Source: a virus. From it: DNA of 64,000 bases. The stretch covers positions 1 to 64,000 of IMG/VR virus record IMGVR_UViG_3300049171_000040; one strand, given 5' to 3'. The notes beneath the pieces are model-generated. The model was given only the letters and a program-made list of their open reading frames with translations. It was not told where the DNA came from and ran no database searches. Positions 30,347-43,108 of this stretch are shown piece by piece (position 1 is the first letter of the stretch; every line of letters starts with the position of its first letter). The position numbers were made by a program, and so were the translations under genes.

Positions 30347-31006
30347 CTAATCCTCGCGGTAGCCGTCGCCGATGAGGTCGATGCGCCGGTCGTGGAGGTA
30401 GCTCTCCACCTCGTGGGGACTGGAGAACGAGCGAGTGTCCTTGTCGCTGATCCCGTCCACGGTGAAGGACTCGACGACCTCGCTGCCGGTCACAGTGATG
30501 GTGATGGTGTCGGTGCCCCACTCAGGGTTGTCGTTGTCGCGAGTGAAGGTGGCCCCGACCACGTTGAGCGTGGGCAGATACTCGCGGGCGGCAGCACCGA
30601 GGGAGTCGGCCAGGACGAGGAGCGTGACGTCACGCTCCTCGTCCCACGTGGCCACGGCGGTGAGGTCGTCGGTGCTGGTTGGGCTCTGCCCGTCGCCCTC
30701 GCTCGGCTCCCACTCGCCGTTGATCCACGCGGCGGCGTCCTGGGCGAACATGCCCTCCATGTGGTCGCCTGCCAGGTGCAGGGACCATGCATCCTTGCCC
30801 CGTGCGATGACGAGGAGGTCGCTGTTGGTCTCGTAGAGGGTGACGCTCATGACGGACTCCTGGGGGACGAGGCTGACAGGGACGATCGCGGCGTAGGGGC
30901 GGCCGTACTTGGTCAGGTAGGTGACCTCGCCTCGGTGGTGCGCCGCGTCGGCGAGGTCCCCGAGGGTTTTGCGTGCCTGCTCGATGCCGACTTCCTTGCT
31001 GCTCAT
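30347..31006 (-). CDS. Phd/YefM-like antitoxin domain fused in frame to an acidic unknown domain
   Basis: EVGIEQARKTLGDL......GEVTYLTKYGRPYAAIVPV; internal RBS CAGGAG before ATG at about 30850. Confidence 0.7.
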   Translation of the reverse strand: MSSKEVGIEQARKTLGDLADAAHHRGEVTYLTKYGRPYAAIVPVSLVPQESVMSVTLYETNSDLLVIARGKDAWSLHLAGDHMEGMFAQDAAAWINGEWEPSEGDGQSPTSTDDLTAVATWDEERDVTLLVLADSLGAAAREYLPTLNVVGATFTRDNDNPEWGTDTITITVTGSEVVESFTVDGISDKDTRSFSSPHEVESYLHDRRIDLIGDGYRED

Positions 31007-31122: not shown

Positions 31123-31428
31123 CTAGGCGGCCTTCTTCGCCGCCGCCGCCTTGCCTGCGACGTTCACGACGTCCTTGAAGTCCGAGCCCGCCTTGAACTT
31201 CGGCACCCAGCACTCGGGCACATCGACAGTCCCGCCGTTACTCGGATTCCGCGCGGTGCGGGCGGGCTTGTGGACCATCTCGAAAGAGCCCCACCCGGTG
31301 ATCGACACCTTGTCGCCGGACGCGACCGCTTTCGCGATCGCTTCGAGGACCGCGTTCACGGCTTCGGTCGCAGTGGCCTTGCCGCCGACGCGGTCGGCGA
31401 TGGCGTCGATGAGGTCGCTCTTGTGCAT
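31123..31428 (-). CDS. hup: HU family DNA-binding protein
   Basis: MHKSDLIDAIA, GDKVSITGWGSFE, ARTARNP.NG and PKFKAG. Confidence 0.92.
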   Translation of the reverse strand: MHKSDLIDAIADRVGGKATATEAVNAVLEAIAKAVASGDKVSITGWGSFEMVHKPARTARNPSNGGTVDVPECWVPKFKAGSDFKDVVNVAGKAAAAKKAA

Positions 31429-31520
31429 GACTATCTCCTTGCAGATGGTTGTTCGATGGATGATCCCATAGCGGATAGCCGAATGAGGTTCGGTGGACCG
31501 CGTGAGCAAGATCGCCATGA

Positions 31521-31548
31521 CCGGGTGATAATCCTCGTTATCGACTGG
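31521..31548. other. dif/loxP-like recombination site (11-6-11)
   Basis: CCGGGTGATAA TCCTCG TTATCGACTGG; arms 8/11 inverted-identical; abuts the recombinase stop codon. Confidence 0.65.
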
Positions 31549-31549
31549 T

Positions 31550-32539
31550 TCACCACAAGACCTTCGCAACACGCACCGAAGGGTCATTCTCAAGCCGCTT
31601 CGGCGCATCCACGTAAATCTCGGTCGTATCCACCGAAGCGTGACCCAAGGCGTATTGCACCTCACGAAGCGTCGCACCACGCGCAACGGCCAAAGTGGCG
31701 AAAGTGTGCCGCAACATGTGCGGAGTGACACGCTCCGGCCGATACAGCCCAGCTTGCCGCGCGATCCGCTTCACCATCTCCGAGACCTCGCCCGTAAGCA
31801 TCGCCCGCCACCTCGCCGTCACGAACAACGGGCCGGCCGCCGAACCACGCGAGTCGAGATAGGCGTCCATCGTCTCGCTCGCCTCGTCGGGCAGATGCCG
31901 GGTACGGATAACGCCGCCCTTGCCGACGATCCGCACCGTCCGCATGCCCTGCTCGAAGCCGAGCGACGCCGGCGCGAGCGAAACCACCTCGGCGGCTCGC
32001 GGCCCGACCATGAGAAGCATCGGCAACACCGCGGCGGTCCGCAGCCGTTGCCGGCCGTGGTCGTCCACCGCAGCCCGCACCATCGCCTGCGCCTCGGACT
32101 CCGTCAAAGAGACCGTGCTGGACTCCCGCCGGTTGATCTCCGGCCGTCGAGCGCCGGCGAACCGGTTGGCATCGAGCACCGACTCCTCAACGAGGTACGT
32201 GTACCACGACGACACCGCGGCGAGCTTCCGCGCCGCAGACCGCCCGGACAGCCCGCGGGTCCGCTCCAGCCACCCGCGGTAGGCGTCGCCGTGCCCGCGC
32301 GTCACCTCCAGCGGGTCGACGTCACGTTCGGCGCAGAACGCCAGCCACTCCCGCAGATCGGTGCCGTACGCCTTGCTGGTGTGCTCGGACCGCTGGTGGA
32401 GCAGCCACGCCCACACGATTTGCTTGACGGACACGTCCATGGTGGCGATCTCCGCCGTGAGACGTCGCTGCCACAACGGCAGCGGCTTGACGGGCCGGTC
32501 CGGCGCCGGGGCGTGGACGTGGTCGAGGAGAAGGCTCAC
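31550..32539 (-). CDS. XerC/D-like tyrosine recombinase
   Basis: SAM-like domain (T..AY..DL..W, RKLAAVSSWY) and catalytic R (GPRAAE), K (GKGG), HMLRH, LGHA and TTEIY. Confidence 0.92.
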   Translation of the reverse strand: MSLLLDHVHAPAPDRPVKPLPLWQRRLTAEIATMDVSVKQIVWAWLLHQRSEHTSKAYGTDLREWLAFCAERDVDPLEVTRGHGDAYRGWLERTRGLSGRSAARKLAAVSSWYTYLVEESVLDANRFAGARRPEINRRESSTVSLTESEAQAMVRAAVDDHGRQRLRTAAVLPMLLMVGPRAAEVVSLAPASLGFEQGMRTVRIVGKGGVIRTRHLPDEASETMDAYLDSRGSAAGPLFVTARWRAMLTGEVSEMVKRIARQAGLYRPERVTPHMLRHTFATLAVARGATLREVQYALGHASVDTTEIYVDAPKRLENDPSVRVAKVLW

Positions 32540-32937
32540 TGCTGGACGCCCCGGTCTCCATCGGCGGCCCGCCAGTACGCGTCGCTGCAGTACTCCACGA
32601 CAGCTATCCGATGGTTGAGGTGGTGCTCGGTGACGTGCAGTCCGGCGGCGTTCCGTGAGCCGTCCGCCGTTCGGTAGTTGTTGCCGGTCCACGGGCAGGC
32701 CCCGCACCGCCACGCGTAGCCGTACCGGTGCGGGTTGGCCCAGACGTCGATCCCGAACCCCCACACGACCATCCCTGGCGGGATGACGACCGTGGCGGCG
32801 AGCTGCATGACGAGGGCGCCCGCCACCTCTGGGCGGCCCTGCACTGCGGTGTCGAAGCGGTGCCGCGCGCCGGCCAGGTCCCGGGCGTCGAGGCACTCGG
32901 TGATGGTGTCCACTGCCTGGGTCAGGGTGGCGGTCAT
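32536..32937 (-). CDS. hypothetical protein with C..C...H....H Zn-finger-like motif
   Basis: RBS GGAGG; WRCGACPW..H...HH; GTGA-coupled to the recombinase. Confidence 0.55.
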   Translation of the reverse strand: MTATLTQAVDTITECLDARDLAGARHRFDTAVQGRPEVAGALVMQLAATVVIPPGMVVWGFGIDVWANPHRYGYAWRCGACPWTGNNYRTADGSRNAAGLHVTEHHLNHRIAVVEYCSDAYWRAADGDRGVQQ

Positions 32938-33026: not shown

Positions 33027-33188
33027 GGTGCAACGGGCCTTCTCGCAGAGGTGCAACAGGGGTGCAAACCGGGGTGCCACGGGCGGTGCAACGAGGGGGT
33101 GCAACCGGGGTGCCACACCACCTCTGACCTGTAACACCCTCGCCCGTTGCACCCCCAGCCCCTCCCGCGAGCCCCGCCAAGGTGCAAC
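33027..33188 (+). repeat. clt-like array of 8-bp GGTGC(A/C)A(C/A) repeats (candidate TraB recognition sequences)
   Basis: Direct copies at 33027, 33050, 33061, 33073, 33085, 33098, 33109 and 33181; inverted copy at 33146; immediately downstream of traB. Confidence 0.8.
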
Positions 33189-33193
33189 TGCAG

Positions 33194-35431
33194 TCAGTCG
33201 ACCTCGGGCCGTCCGAGCATCAGGTGGCGCTGCGCCTCGTCGTCGTAGCCGAGGACACCCGTCTCGCGCAGCTTCTTCAACCGGCCCTGAGCCCACTGCC
33301 TTGTCATGTCCGTCGACGTCCACAACGGACTCAAGTCGCCCGTGGTGAAGTCCCGCCGGCCGTGATCCCACCAGTCCTGCAGCAACTGGACCAGCGCCGC
33401 CAAACGTGCCTCCGGAGTCATCGGCGTCGCCTGCGTGAACTTCCACGGCGGTTCCCCCTCATCCAGGTCGGGAATCTCGTCGTCCAGACCGGCCTGTATC
33501 GATGGGTCCGGGTCGGGTTCGGTCAGATACTCGGCCACCACGTCCTCCTCGGTCTCGTCGTCCGGGTCCTCGTGCGAGCCGCCGCGGATCGCCTGCAGCA
33601 GCTCCTCCAACTCGTCGGGCTGGGTGAGCACGGCAGGTGCACCGCTTTCACGCGGCGGGCCGACCGCGTCACGTCGCCGCAGTTCGGCGATCAGCGCCTC
33701 GGCCTCGGCGAACCCGACCCGGATCTTGCGCTGCAGCATCGACGCCGAAGCGAACTGAGTGTTGACGACCAGCTCGGCCGCCTGCGCGAGAAGGTCAACG
33801 TCGATCGGAGCCGCCGCGGTCACGGGGGCGGCCTGAGGCGAGGCGGTCAGACGAGAGAGAGCGGCGGTCCCTGCGTCCACCTGCTTAGCGGAGGCAGGCC
33901 ACTGTGCGGCGTGTGCCCGCATCGCCTCGTTCGCCCGCTCGTCGTCGAACTCACCCCTGGCGTCGATGCCCCACGCGAAGGTGCGCAGCGGCATCGCATA
34001 CCTGCCGTCCTCGATCGTGGGCGCGTCGAGGTACTGCATTCCGGGCTGCGCGTTGGTCCACAACTCCGGACGGCACTCGGCGTCCTGCTGCCGGTCGCTT
34101 AACCCGAAGGACGCATCGGCGGAGTTCTCTACGCCAAAGCACGCCTTGGCGAGCTGGCCGCGAGCAATCGTCGGCATCTGCGAATAGTCGGACCGCTGCA
34201 ACGACAAGAACACCGACCCGCCGCCAGAACGAATCGCCTTCAGCAGGGACAGGAACCGCTCCTGCTCGGCATCAGTCAGGGCGTCGAAGACGTCGGGGAA
34301 CTCCTCGATCCACAGCACCTGGTACGTCAGCCCGCACCCGGCCTTCCACTTTTGCAGGCCCTTGGCCGCCAGCTTTTCGGTGCGGTCCTTCACCTGGGAC
34401 TGCATCTCGTTCAGCAGCGCCTTGGCACCGGCCTGGGTCGTTTCGAACCGGTGTAGGGCGTCTTCCAGCGGGCCAAGCGTCTGCTTGCCCTTGGTGATGT
34501 CGATCGCGAACACGGCGACGTCATGGCGAGTGATCAGTTCGGCGAGGTAGTTCCATGCCCCGCCGATGCTCTTGCCGGCGCCGGTCATGCCCATGATCTG
34601 CACGTGGTGGCCGACGATGACGTGGCACACCTCGTCGAGGTCCTGCCAGACGCCTGTGCGCAGCGGTTCGGCCACGCTGCCGCCCGGGCGAGACGGGCCT
34701 GGCCAGGCGATGGGCTTCTTCATCACCCGCGCGTCAGAGATCACGACGTTCGCCTTCGATGCGTCGTCCGGGTCGATCGTCGTTGTAATGCTCCCGGGCG
34801 GGAGTTGCATCCCGGATTCGATGTAGCTGACCTTCTTCGTCAGGTCATCTGCCGTCTGTTTCCCCGGCTCAAGCTGCACCTTGCCTTCCACCTTGTGTGG
34901 GGTCGCGGCGGTCGTCTTCGCCTCGATCGCGGGCATCCCGGCACGCTCGGCGCCTTGCCCGAACAGCATCGCGAGCGGGTCGGCGACGACGCTCTGCACG
35001 TCCACCCCCTTGAGACGGATGATCGTGCGGATGTTCCATGTCAACGCCAGGGTTACGCCGCCCACGAGCGCGAGGCGGCCAGTGAAGACGGTGGCCGGCC
35101 CGTTGATGGTGGCGGCGCATACCCACAGGCCGGCGAGCAGGGTCGTGACGGTGGTGTGGGTCCGCCCCCACGGGCCGCGGGCGTGGGACTGGCCGTAGGT
35201 GACGCCAGTGAGGACGAGCACAGCGGCGGCCATCAGGAACATCGTCCAGGCGACCACCTGCGGGTCATCGGAGCGCAGGATGAAGTGGAACGCCGTGCCC
35301 ACGCCATACCCGAAGATGCCGACGACCCACGGCGACATCAGGGCCGCGAGCTTCGACGCTTCCTTCGCCGCGACCTTGGACATGCTCGACTCTGTGTCGA
35401 CGGACACCAGGTCCTTGGTACGCGTCGCCAT
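33194..35431 (-). CDS. traB: TraB-type conjugative DNA translocase (FtsK/SpoIIIE family)
   Basis: N-terminal TMs, Walker A GMTGAGKS, Walker B LWIEE, SLQR, FtsK gamma-like segment and terminal wHTH. Confidence 0.88.
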   Translation of the reverse strand: MATRTKDLVSVDTESSMSKVAAKEASKLAALMSPWVVGIFGYGVGTAFHFILRSDDPQVVAWTMFLMAAAVLVLTGVTYGQSHARGPWGRTHTTVTTLLAGLWVCAATINGPATVFTGRLALVGGVTLALTWNIRTIIRLKGVDVQSVVADPLAMLFGQGAERAGMPAIEAKTTAATPHKVEGKVQLEPGKQTADDLTKKVSYIESGMQLPPGSITTTIDPDDASKANVVISDARVMKKPIAWPGPSRPGGSVAEPLRTGVWQDLDEVCHVIVGHHVQIMGMTGAGKSIGGAWNYLAELITRHDVAVFAIDITKGKQTLGPLEDALHRFETTQAGAKALLNEMQSQVKDRTEKLAAKGLQKWKAGCGLTYQVLWIEEFPDVFDALTDAEQERFLSLLKAIRSGGGSVFLSLQRSDYSQMPTIARGQLAKACFGVENSADASFGLSDRQQDAECRPELWTNAQPGMQYLDAPTIEDGRYAMPLRTFAWGIDARGEFDDERANEAMRAHAAQWPASAKQVDAGTAALSRLTASPQAAPVTAAAPIDVDLLAQAAELVVNTQFASASMLQRKIRVGFAEAEALIAELRRRDAVGPPRESGAPAVLTQPDELEELLQAIRGGSHEDPDDETEEDVVAEYLTEPDPDPSIQAGLDDEIPDLDEGEPPWKFTQATPMTPEARLAALVQLLQDWWDHGRRDFTTGDLSPLWTSTDMTRQWAQGRLKKLRETGVLGYDDEAQRHLMLGRPEVD

Positions 35432-35817
35432 CAGTCGTCATTCCAGTCGAACGTGGACTTCTGCTTCTCGGGCTTGGCCTGCGGGAGAACGTCCACGAAC
35501 TCCTTGCGGAACTGCGCATGAAACTTCACCATCTCCACGCCGCTCGCCCGCTGAAGCTCAGCAGAGCGCTTGAGGCGGCGCACGACCCGCCTGGCTCGCC
35601 ATTTCACGTCCGGGGCGCCCAGCACGCTGAGGATCGGGTGGCCCTTGAACGAGCGGACGAGGACGGCGTACAACTCGTCGGACCCGAGGTTGAACTCCTC
35701 GCCCAGGTCGCGGGCGAGAGCGCGGCCGACCTTGGCGTACTCGGTGATCGACCTCGGGCCGCCCCAAGGGATGTTGGACAACTCGGGGATGCGGCTACGT
35801 CCGGGTTTGTCAGTCAC
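35431..35817 (-). CDS. TraA-like plasmid transfer protein
   Basis: Coupled to traB; RARRV.R.LKR.AE.......KF...F pattern of the small basic genes preceding actinomycete traB. Confidence 0.55.
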   Translation of the reverse strand: MTDKPGRSRIPELSNIPWGGPRSITEYAKVGRALARDLGEEFNLGSDELYAVLVRSFKGHPILSVLGAPDVKWRARRVVRRLKRSAELQRASGVEMVKFHAQFRKEFVDVLPQAKPEKQKSTFDWNDD

Positions 35818-36035
35818 AGGGAGTCCTCCCAACTCTCCCGGACGGCATCACGAAGCTGACCGGAGATGAAGCCGATACGGCGGGTGCCGATACGGGCGGT
35901 GATCAACGCGTCTGTGGCGGTGATCAGTAAGACGACGACGTGGCCGGTGAGGGTCAGTGCGACCGTCACCCGCGCTACGGCGGCGTAGGCCAGGATGCGA
36001 GCCCATCGACCCGCTCTGACGTGGATGCCGCGCAC
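35814..36035 (-). CDS. small membrane protein of the transfer operon
   Basis: RBS GGAGG, one TM, overlaps the traA-like start. Confidence 0.5.
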   Translation of the reverse strand: MRGIHVRAGRWARILAYAAVARVTVALTLTGHVVVLLITATDALITARIGTRRIGFISGQLRDAVRESWEDSL

Positions 36036-41874: not shown

Positions 41875-42028
41875 GTGACAGCACGTCAGCGGCCGTGAGG
41901 GTTTCGGTCATTCGCTCTGTGATTGGTCTAGTCGGCCAAGATCGTGCTTACCGCACTCGCCTTTAAGGTTTTCGCTCGGCCGTGACGTGGGTATACGCAG
42001 CTCGCTACATTGTTCGACCCCGAATCTC

Positions 42029-42073
42029 CTTACAAGCGAGGGGTCACTGGTTCGAACCCAGTACCGCCCACCA
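42029..42073 (+). other. attP core = 3' half of tRNA-Val(TAC)
   Basis: CTTACAA GCGAG GGGTC ACTGG TTCGAAC CCAGT ACCGCCC A CCA, with no 5' half upstream; about 100 nt before the integrase; followed by a hairpin. Confidence 0.88.
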
Positions 42074-42178
42074 CAAGCCCCTGACCAGCAGAAACGGTCG
42101 GGGGCTTCTTGCTTGCCTTTTGGCTACATTGCATCTACACCCCTCGCCTTTTCCGATCGCGCCACCTACCTTGGCGCA

Positions 42179-43108
42179 ATGGCACCCCTCACAGAAGCCG
42201 CCAAACGCAATTTCGGACCAGAAATTACGTCATTTCGGAGGCACCTTAAATCGGAGAACAAGTCCGACAACACCGTCCGGATCTACACCGACGCCACCGA
42301 GCGGTTCGCGAACTGGCTCACCGGCCAGCCCGATGGCGAGATGGACCCGGCCGAGGCGTGGGAAGACGTCGAACGCTCCGACATTCAGAACTGGATCGTG
42401 TCCTTGCTCGACACGAGGTCGCCCGGCTACGCGAACAACCAGTTCAGGGCCATCCAGCAGTTCTTCAAGTGGTGGGCCGAAGAGGAAGAACTACCCAACC
42501 TGATGCTCGGAATGAAACCCCCGCATGTCCCCGAGCAGCCTGTGACCGTCATACGCAAGGAGCAACTCGGCGCGCTCCTCAAGGACTGCCAGGGGAGAGA
42601 ATTCCTCAACCGCCGCGACCTGGCGATCCTCTACGTGTTCATGGACTCCGGTGTCCGCCGAGCCGAACTGGTGGGCCTCAACCGCGACCACGTGGACCTG
42701 GACATGCGGGAGATCACCGTCCTGGGCAAGGGCCGCCGGCAGCGTGTTGTCACCATCGGGCGAAAGGCCGTCGTTGTGATCGACCGCTACCTGACACTCC
42801 GGGACAAGCAGCCGTGGGCCGACAGCCCCGCCCTGTGGCTGAGCGCAACAACGGGCGAGCCCCTCACGAAGTGGGGGATACGGGAGATGCTGGAGCGCCG
42901 CGGCCGGGCGGTCGGCATCGACCATCTCTCCGCCCACGACCTGCGCCATTCGTGGGCGCACTACGCCAAGCAGAACCTCACCGAGGAGGAACTGATGCGC
43001 CTCGCCGGCTGGCGCTCCCGGCAGATGGTCGACCGTTACGCGGCCTCCCTCGCCGATGAGCGGGCAAGGGAGGCCGGCAAGCGTCTCCCGCTGGGCGACG
43101 CGCTGTGA
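42179..43108 (+). CDS. int: tyrosine integrase
   Basis: SGVRRAEL, GKG, HDLRH, LAGW and DRY; adjacent to attP. Confidence 0.92.
   Translation: MAPLTEAAKRNFGPEITSFRRHLKSENKSDNTVRIYTDATERFANWLTGQPDGEMDPAEAWEDVERSDIQNWIVSLLDTRSPGYANNQFRAIQQFFKWWAEEEELPNLMLGMKPPHVPEQPVTVIRKEQLGALLKDCQGREFLNRRDLAILYVFMDSGVRRAELVGLNRDHVDLDMREITVLGKGRRQRVVTIGRKAVVVIDRYLTLRDKQPWADSPALWLSATTGEPLTKWGIREMLERRGRAVGIDHLSAHDLRHSWAHYAKQNLTEEELMRLAGWRSRQMVDRYAASLADERAREAGKRLPLGDAL

Follow-up and report, generated by a model that had tools for sequence, protein, structure and literature searches.

Cre/loxP of phage P1 is separate from any integrase and serves both cyclisation and the resolution of plasmid-prophage dimers. P1 itself is a plasmid prophage with a partition system, and its loxP site has a 13-8-13 layout. 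XerCD/dif comprises two enzymes and a site with unlike arms, built on a 6-bp centre and ATAA/TTAT inner arm bases. The XerS/difSL system of streptococci and lactococci links a single Xer-type recombinase to a dif-like site as a module, and has an FtsK-family translocase partner in the same cell (PMC1914069); it is chromosomal, located at the replication terminus, and its 31-bp difSL site is atypical. Among actinomycete elements, MrpA of the Streptomyces plasmid SCP2* is summarised as a tyrosine recombinase that resolves plasmid multimers (Warth et al. 2011, cited in PMC3218068). Actinomycete integrative conjugative elements (AICEs), which are small, carry a tyrosine recombinase beside TraB-type transfer genes, and AICE integrases with their attP (pSAM2, SLP1, and pMEA300 types) integrate into tRNA 3' ends (PMC2440964, PMC3218068). 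The phage-borne recombinase and site that we describe here add another case to a kind of system already known, and open no new class of mechanism.

The locus lies in the window, by which we mean the whole stretch of DNA that was analysed, namely the opening 64 kb of a virus record (G000) that is 100,074 bp long. The record appears to be a complete, unintegrated siphovirus of the cos type; it comes from a temperate actinomycete phage, with Streptosporangiaceae as the likely host family. An HNH endonuclease at its right end adjoins the point where the structural genes begin; one unannotated ORF among these, of 1,222 aa, is as long as a tape-measure gene. From 45 kb to 100 kb, tightly packed genes run rightward and encode, among others, a YqaJ/RecT pair, a helicase, and a methylase. 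A leftward block separates the lysis region from the integrase, in the order 547-aa ORF, small ORFs, TraA-like gene, TraB, 8-mer array, 133-aa Cys/His-rich ORF, recombinase, dyad site, and HU. PADLOC gave no defence-system match on this block. DNA comparison turned up no close relative in the deposited phages, and neither did protein comparison above 33% identity. The region is present in one soil-metagenome DNA run, as contigs only; no joint was seen at the dyad site, and no RNA run is listed with the region. Two further observations concern the phage genome at large. A perfect 28-bp palindrome at window positions 30615-30642, within a 219-aa ORF with a Phd-like N-terminus, is where the public contigs of the metagenome run break exactly. 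Past the window, positions 80905-81891 and 72523-73299 (L341) encode a Thg1-like tRNA-His guanylyltransferase and an RNA ligase, which together might repair tRNAs.

The features of the locus, in window coordinates, are as follows.

31123..31428, minus strand: HU/IHF-family protein (Pfam Bac_DNA_binding, E 1e-25), whose membership of the unit is doubtful
31477..31505, minus strand: flank alignable with prophage G003 by blastn
31506..31513, minus strand: one-sided flank motif GATCTTGC, 6 nt past the arm facing away from the recombinase gene
31520..31549, minus strand: predicted core recombination site, 12-6-12, ACCAGTCGATAA-CGAGGA-TTATCACCCGGT
31550..32539, minus strand: Xer-like, arm-less tyrosine recombinase (P0001, 329 aa), from Pfam, alignment, and solved relatives
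32536..32937, minus strand: 133-aa Cys/His-rich ORF, the stop of which overlaps the recombinase start (GTGA)
33027..33188, plus strand: clt-like array of GGTGC[AC]A[AC] 8-mers, from a repeat search (families D1-D3 and inverted copies)
33194..35431, minus strand: TraB, an FtsK-like conjugative DNA translocase with an FtsK-gamma-like domain, from NCBIfam and Pfam
35431..35832, minus strand: TraA-like protein (NCBIfam NF041213, E 1.6e-9, under the cut-off)
41987..43108, plus strand: separate phage integrase, a tyrosine recombinase outside the unit (Pfam PF00589, 85 bits)

The recombinase belongs to the tyrosine recombinase superfamily, with a catalytic domain that carries the R-K-H-R-H/W-Y residues (Pfam Phage_integrase PF00589, 94 bits against a cut-off of 27, together with Phage_int_SAM_1 PF02899). 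R181, K207, H274, R277, H300, and Y309 are invariant in an alignment of 30 sequences. The best solved relative is XerD (1a0p, E 1.5e-24), and Cre is absent among the solved relatives at E 1e-5. Orthology to XerC, XerD, XerA, or XerS was rejected, as all scores fall under the NCBIfam equivalog cut-offs: 160 bits against 335 for XerC (TIGR02224), 143 against 330 for XerD (TIGR02225), 147.5 against 220 for XerA, and 69 against 267 for XerS. Host paralogues are approximately 31% identical to the phage protein. According to Pfam, the 329-aa protein consists of the SAM-like and catalytic domains only and lacks an arm-binding domain. In this it differs from a lambda-type phage or AICE integrase, which has an N-terminal arm-binding domain and arm-type sites; no repeated arm-type sequences were seen around the phage site. 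The 133-aa Cys/His-rich ORF upstream has no Pfam family and no homologue in the collected loci.

Read on the plus strand, positions 31521-31548 are CCGGGTGATAA-TCCTCG-TTATCGACTGG, and the recombinase stop at 31550-31552 (TCA on plus, TGA on minus) begins 1 nt away. The letters thus agree with the 11-6-11 site, its position, and its 1-nt gap as given in an earlier note on this DNA, although the arms match at 8 of 11 positions in that reading and at 9 of 12 when the site is read as 12-6-12 (31520-31549), which is the best reading. As evidence, a bare 11-6-11 palindrome was discarded, being at chance level, with 40 dyads of such quality observed in the 100-kb genome and 37 in Markov shuffles. The ATAA-N6-TTAT core, on the other hand, occurs once in 100 kb where 0.07 copies are expected, which sustains the dif architecture that had been noted (inner GATAA/TTATC around a 6-bp spacer). 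The site has the approximately 11-bp arms, the ATAA/TTAT inner bases, and the 6-bp centre of a dif-type core, and there is one such site per replicon (100 kb), immediately beside the gene, as in a multimer-resolution unit; no second copy was found in the phage genome, even at three mismatches. An RNA element or terminator at this position was considered and rejected, since a promoter/terminator scan and an RNA fold of the recombinase-HU spacer came out no better than shuffles.

The unit resembles P1 Cre/loxP in that it is phage-borne, with one tyrosine recombinase adjoining one inverted-arm site with an asymmetric spacer, and in being separate from the integrase. Unlike loxP, the phage site is 12-6-12 with dif-type inner bases, and unlike P1, the phage integrates and no ParB_N or ParA-type family was found in its 100 kb. 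With XerS/difSL the unit has in common the linkage of recombinase and site as a module, and differs from it in size of site, in chromosomal context, and in the low score against the XerS model. The 6-bp centre and the inner arm bases recall XerCD/dif, from which the unit is set apart by its single enzyme and near-identical arms; moreover, the host has a distinct dif of its own. MrpA is likewise a tyrosine recombinase in an actinomycete element with conjugation genes, though MrpA and its site could be compared by description only. While the neighbourhood is like that of an AICE, the phage site differs from an AICE attP in having a palindromic dif-like core and no tRNA-like segment, and in staying intact inside integrated relatives.

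The genes upstream of the recombinase are of a conjugative type. TraB matches NCBIfam NF041214 (plasmid_TraB) at E 1e-114 over profile positions 4-627 of 639, under the equivalog cut-off, and Pfam FtsK_gamma at E 9e-14, and nine GGTGCAAC-type 8-mers lie directly behind traB as a clt-like array. The linkage of TraB and recombinase recurs in a provirus (G004, TraB 73% identical) and in a more distant locus, G096. Another provirus, G003, has a like layout, but its proteins have diverged too far to be named: in BLASTP against TraB, the 724 residues encoded upstream of its recombinase reached E 0.19 at a Walker-A-like stretch, and they had no family match. Most TraB loci lack such a recombinase, and most recombinase loci lack TraB. 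A separate observation is that a 343-aa ORF at 63946-64977, running past the window end, has a segment in common with the FtsK-gamma-like part of TraB; in tblastn it matched TraB genes of other genomes with 41-56% identity over 61-97 residues.

Conservation of the site was assessed beside homologous recombinases, drawn from virus records and a 301-genome sample of Streptosporangiaceae, the family of Acrocarpospora and Nonomuraea. A recombinase match was present in 19 of the 301 sampled genomes, and Streptosporangium genomes carry homologues of 62-69% identity. Among 30 distinct homologue loci at 40% identity or above, 16 bear the site within 0-1.8 kb of the gene, most of the loci without a site (about half of the chromosomal homologue loci) having been read with 1.5-kb flanks only. 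The earlier note had suggested looking for the site next to homologues, and its presence there speaks for the pairing. Eight of the site-less loci resemble one orthologous chromosomal gene with a conserved downstream neighbour. The shared architecture is a 12-bp arm ending in [CG]ATAA, a C-N-N-G-G-A centre, the inverted arm, six bases, and then GATCTTGA. A seventeenth site of this architecture lies beside a 34%-identical homologue (L094), while distant homologues of 30-39% identity have ATAA-N6-TTAT dyads near start codons without the GATC flank. Because the core motif is so rare in the GC-rich genomes of the host family (only 4-13 copies of ATAA-N6-TTAT per 8-12 Mb), the association of site and gene cannot be due to chance. 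An exact 14-mer search of viral contigs gave, among the matches listed, mostly chance ones in low-GC phages, and only G003 was relevant.

The arms of these sites vary together. Outer arm positions agree with their own partner at 5.1 of 8 positions, a value reached in 0 of 20000 permutations, and with the partners of other sites at 3.1 of 8; between the window and two other loci (L082 and L162), for instance, the arms show a G..C to C..G double change. Recombinase identity also correlates with arm similarity (r = 0.57; Mantel, 0 of 5000). Since gene and site are linked, this correlation alone shows joint inheritance, and the covariation within the dyad is the stronger sign, at the sequence level, that one protein may read both arms. 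The central region is asymmetric (CNNGGA) and is kept across sites with differing arms. On the flank, GATC stands at the same offset in 17 of 17 aligned sites, 16 of which were collected by a pattern demanding GATC there; in an unbiased listing, every site at 40% identity or above had the flank GATC. TTGA follows the GATC in 10-16 of the 17. At 16 loci the core separates the flank from the gene, irrespective of gene orientation, and in a blastn comparison of phage positions 31477-32426 with G003 positions 13386-12440 the match extends 43 nt past the core before the genomes diverge. The rule is not universal, because G096 has GATCTTG on the gene-proximal side at a 4-nt offset; no second site was found at G096, and no tRNA within 20 kb of it. 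This GATCTTG flank may serve as an accessory element to recombination.

Related pairs of gene and site are present on plasmids. Recombinase homologues of 32-37% identity occur on 165 plasmid records, and six of the seven plasmid homologues inspected have a dyad matching at 10-12 of 12 positions, with ATAA-N6-TTAT, 0-1.9 kb upstream of the gene. The dyad lies approximately 110-410 bp upstream of the gene on two circular conjugative Pseudomonas plasmids, one Paraburkholderia plasmid, and one Stutzerimonas megaplasmid, and 1.9 kb upstream on a 203-kb Micromonospora plasmid; in a Streptomyces element it abuts the start codon. Gene and dyad are thus found together on autonomous circular plasmids, as is expected of a multimer-resolution unit. 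The Pseudomonas, Paraburkholderia, and Stutzerimonas loci (L393, L395, L397, and L398), with homologues of approximately 33% identity, have perfect or near-perfect 12-6-12 dyads such as AAGTGGTGATAA-AATAGG-TTATCACCACTT, and in the literature searched we found no description of this recombinase-dyad pair. The Streptomyces unit of 13.5 kb is ordered GntR, DUF2637, TraA, TraB, six CTGACACC 8-mers, small Cys-rich ORF, site, recombinase, and prim-pol/primase. Its order of TraA, TraB, 8-mers, Cys-rich ORF, and recombinase equals that of the window, with the small Cys-rich ORF occupying the position of the 133-aa ORF. The 26,964-bp record of this element (L390; NZ_CP108534.1, Streptomyces sp. NBC_01220 'plasmid unnamed3') consists of two head-to-tail copies of the 13.5-kb AICE-like unit and lists every protein accession twice, 13,482 bp apart; the dimer is either an assembly artefact or a real multimer.

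We propose that the recombinase and its 30-bp dyad would act as a self-contained, single-enzyme recombination unit of the Xer/Cre type. Two protomers would bind the two near-identical 12-bp arms, and strand exchange would take place at the edges of the asymmetric 6-bp centre (CGAGGA). Because the centre is asymmetric, the site has an orientation, and recombination between directly repeated copies within a circular multimer would free monomers. The unit belongs to a conjugation block of plasmid or AICE type (TraA, TraB, clt, Cys-rich ORF, and recombinase) carried by a temperate phage, in which YqaJ/RecT recombination would generate multimers of the circular forms; excised, replicating, or transferring circles would be kept monomeric, and the unit would not serve chromosomal integration. 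Keeping copies of a circular element monomeric in this way is the best-supported function, to which we give an even chance on the comparisons above. It is best supported because circular plasmids of Pseudomonas, Paraburkholderia, Stutzerimonas, Micromonospora, and Streptomyces carry the gene-plus-dyad unit, and it is placed first on the strength of this plasmid occurrence, the one site per replicon next to the gene, the single-enzyme arms, the directional centre, and the multimers that RecT would make. Against it stands the nature of the phage, since a phage of cos type that integrates would not obviously need to resolve multimers, and so do the homologue loci without a site and the orphan site at a homology break described below.

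The earlier note had likewise proposed a self-contained resolution system for an extrachromosomal or conjugating circle, with HU as a possible accessory factor. A conserved dif-like site of its own and the plasmid relatives make resolution the most likely function, and a conjugating circle fits the adjoining TraA, TraB, and clt, but the other parts of that proposal gained no support. With neither ParA nor ParB found, nothing points to a prophage maintained stably outside the chromosome. Nor is HU supported as a dedicated partner, because its linkage is not conserved: HU lies within 3 kb of the recombinase at 2 (G000 and G005) of approximately 17 site-bearing loci. Another HU homologue was seen behind a TraB gene that has no recombinase (L350).

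The main alternative reading, which we consider unlikely, is that the recombinase is the arm-less integrase of an AICE-like block and the dyad its attP, perhaps as a second attachment system of the phage or as a docking site at which other elements insert. As the attachment site of the phage itself the dyad was rejected. The separate tyrosine recombinase at 41987-43108 has a tRNA 3' end fragment before it at approximately 42040-42073, in line with the separate int/attP that had been noted, and a 70%-identical homologue of this integrase lies at the very left end of provirus G005; Rfam gave no match around the attP region. Contig depth doubles over window positions 42010-42676 (91 against approximately 35), with a loose end starting at 42042 at the tRNA 3' fragment, as expected if a host tRNA or an integrated copy was in the sample. 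Furthermore, the 101.6-kb provirus G003 is collinear with the phage gene by gene, and its ends coincide exactly with the position of int/attP in the phage. A serine recombinase occupies the right end of this provirus, with the Xer-like recombinase and an intact site 12-13 kb inside, and the site is likewise intact at chromosomal loci of G002. Two side observations on G003 are that its large serine recombinase (100708-101175) replaces the tyrosine integrase of the phage, an integrase-module swap between related phages, and that a WhiB-family gene lies directly upstream of its recombinase (L184:12045-12326).

Such an integrase could nevertheless have been ancestral to the unit. The 13.5-kb Streptomyces element is AICE-like in make-up and has no other recombinase, so that the ancestral role could be integration, and provirus G004 is also without another recombinase on its record. 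Arm-less integrases are known in actinophages such as Brujita. An orphan dif-like site with arms GATCCC[AT]CATAA and centre CGAGGA, with no recombinase within 6-7 kb, was found in two genomes (L214:6183 on G001 contig 96 and L215:7001 on G120 contig 38), and the homology of these two genomes, a shared 1.2-kb segment, ends exactly at the orphan site, as expected of a recombination junction; beyond the site lies a host-like RmlD gene. The shared segment carries the gene of a 379-aa zinc-ribbon/coiled-coil protein, with the orphan site approximately 80 nt upstream of it; homologues of this gene also lie near recombinase homologues at two other loci (L003 and L183), behind a different palindrome. 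However, when G120 and G001 were searched for another copy of the orphan site, whole or hybrid, no match rose above background; G000 and G096 likewise yielded no additional or hybrid copy, and no empty attB was found beside RmlD homologues. Integration through the core would place gene and flank at opposite ends of the integrated element, yet core and GATC flank are intact beside the gene at 16 loci, two of which are contiguous gene-core-flank units in a complete 12.8-Mb Nonomuraea chromosome. The unit is also internal to G003, a prophage integrated by a serine integrase, and the homologues with a like arrangement are on autonomous circular plasmids.

Less probable again is that the dyad is mainly a regulatory operator, bound by the recombinase or some other dimeric protein, for the recombinase operon or for the HU gene, with recombination rare or lost; we regard this as improbable. 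Autoregulation has been proposed for difSL-xerS (PMC1914069), and among relatives on plasmids, as in several from prophages, the site is upstream of the recombinase, abutting the start codon in the Streptomyces plasmid, while in the window it is 92 nt upstream of HU. The catalytic residues, however, are all conserved, and a conserved asymmetric centre between differing arms fits strand exchange better than an operator; the scan for a sigma-70-like promoter between recombinase and HU gave none. Regulation and recombination could coexist at one dyad.

Within multimer resolution, a more specific possibility is that the locus is a mobile counterpart of FtsK-XerD-dif, in which TraB would load at clt, pump the circle, and activate the recombinase at the site 1.5 kb away, such that the circle is resolved to a monomer during conjugative transfer and the GATCTTGA flank acts as a stop or activation signal; we consider this a long shot. 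Use of the dyad by host XerC/XerD as a mimic of host dif, in the manner of IMEX, is suggested by the TCGATAA on one arm and the TTAT on the other, both common to host dif, but is extremely improbable, as host dif differs in the centre and outer arms, and the arms of the phage type vary by element along with their own recombinase.

For this comparison, host dif was read from four Streptosporangiaceae genomes (G001, G002, G120, and G142) as GTTGCT[CT]GATAA-[TG]G[ATC]AC[AC]-TTATGTCAAGTA, which is likely the chromosomal dif of the family (L219, L220, L204, and L206). The phage site was accordingly rejected as a copy of it, with only the inner 4-7 bases in agreement, and the comparison with host dif that had been proposed beforehand leaves the two sites distinct. 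On the complete G002 chromosome of 12.76 Mb, dif is at 5.716 Mb; three recombinase homologues (at 5.05, 5.80, and 6.14 Mb) and six of the eight ATAA-N6-TTAT motifs of that chromosome cluster within approximately 0.8 Mb of dif.

The most notable details of the unit are its covarying arms, its conserved asymmetric centre, and its one-sided GATCTTGA flank. Together, the homologous loci present a clean case, at the level of sequence, of a recombinase and its DNA site evolving together, in which the arms change while the dyad, the centre, and the one-sided flank are kept. They also make up a naturally occurring set of orthogonal recombinase/site pairs in high-GC bacteria. More generally, a plasmid-type unit that ranges from Pseudomonas to Streptomyces rides in temperate actinophages beside TraB-type transfer genes, which is relevant to the question of whether prophages of this sort can transfer as conjugating circles.
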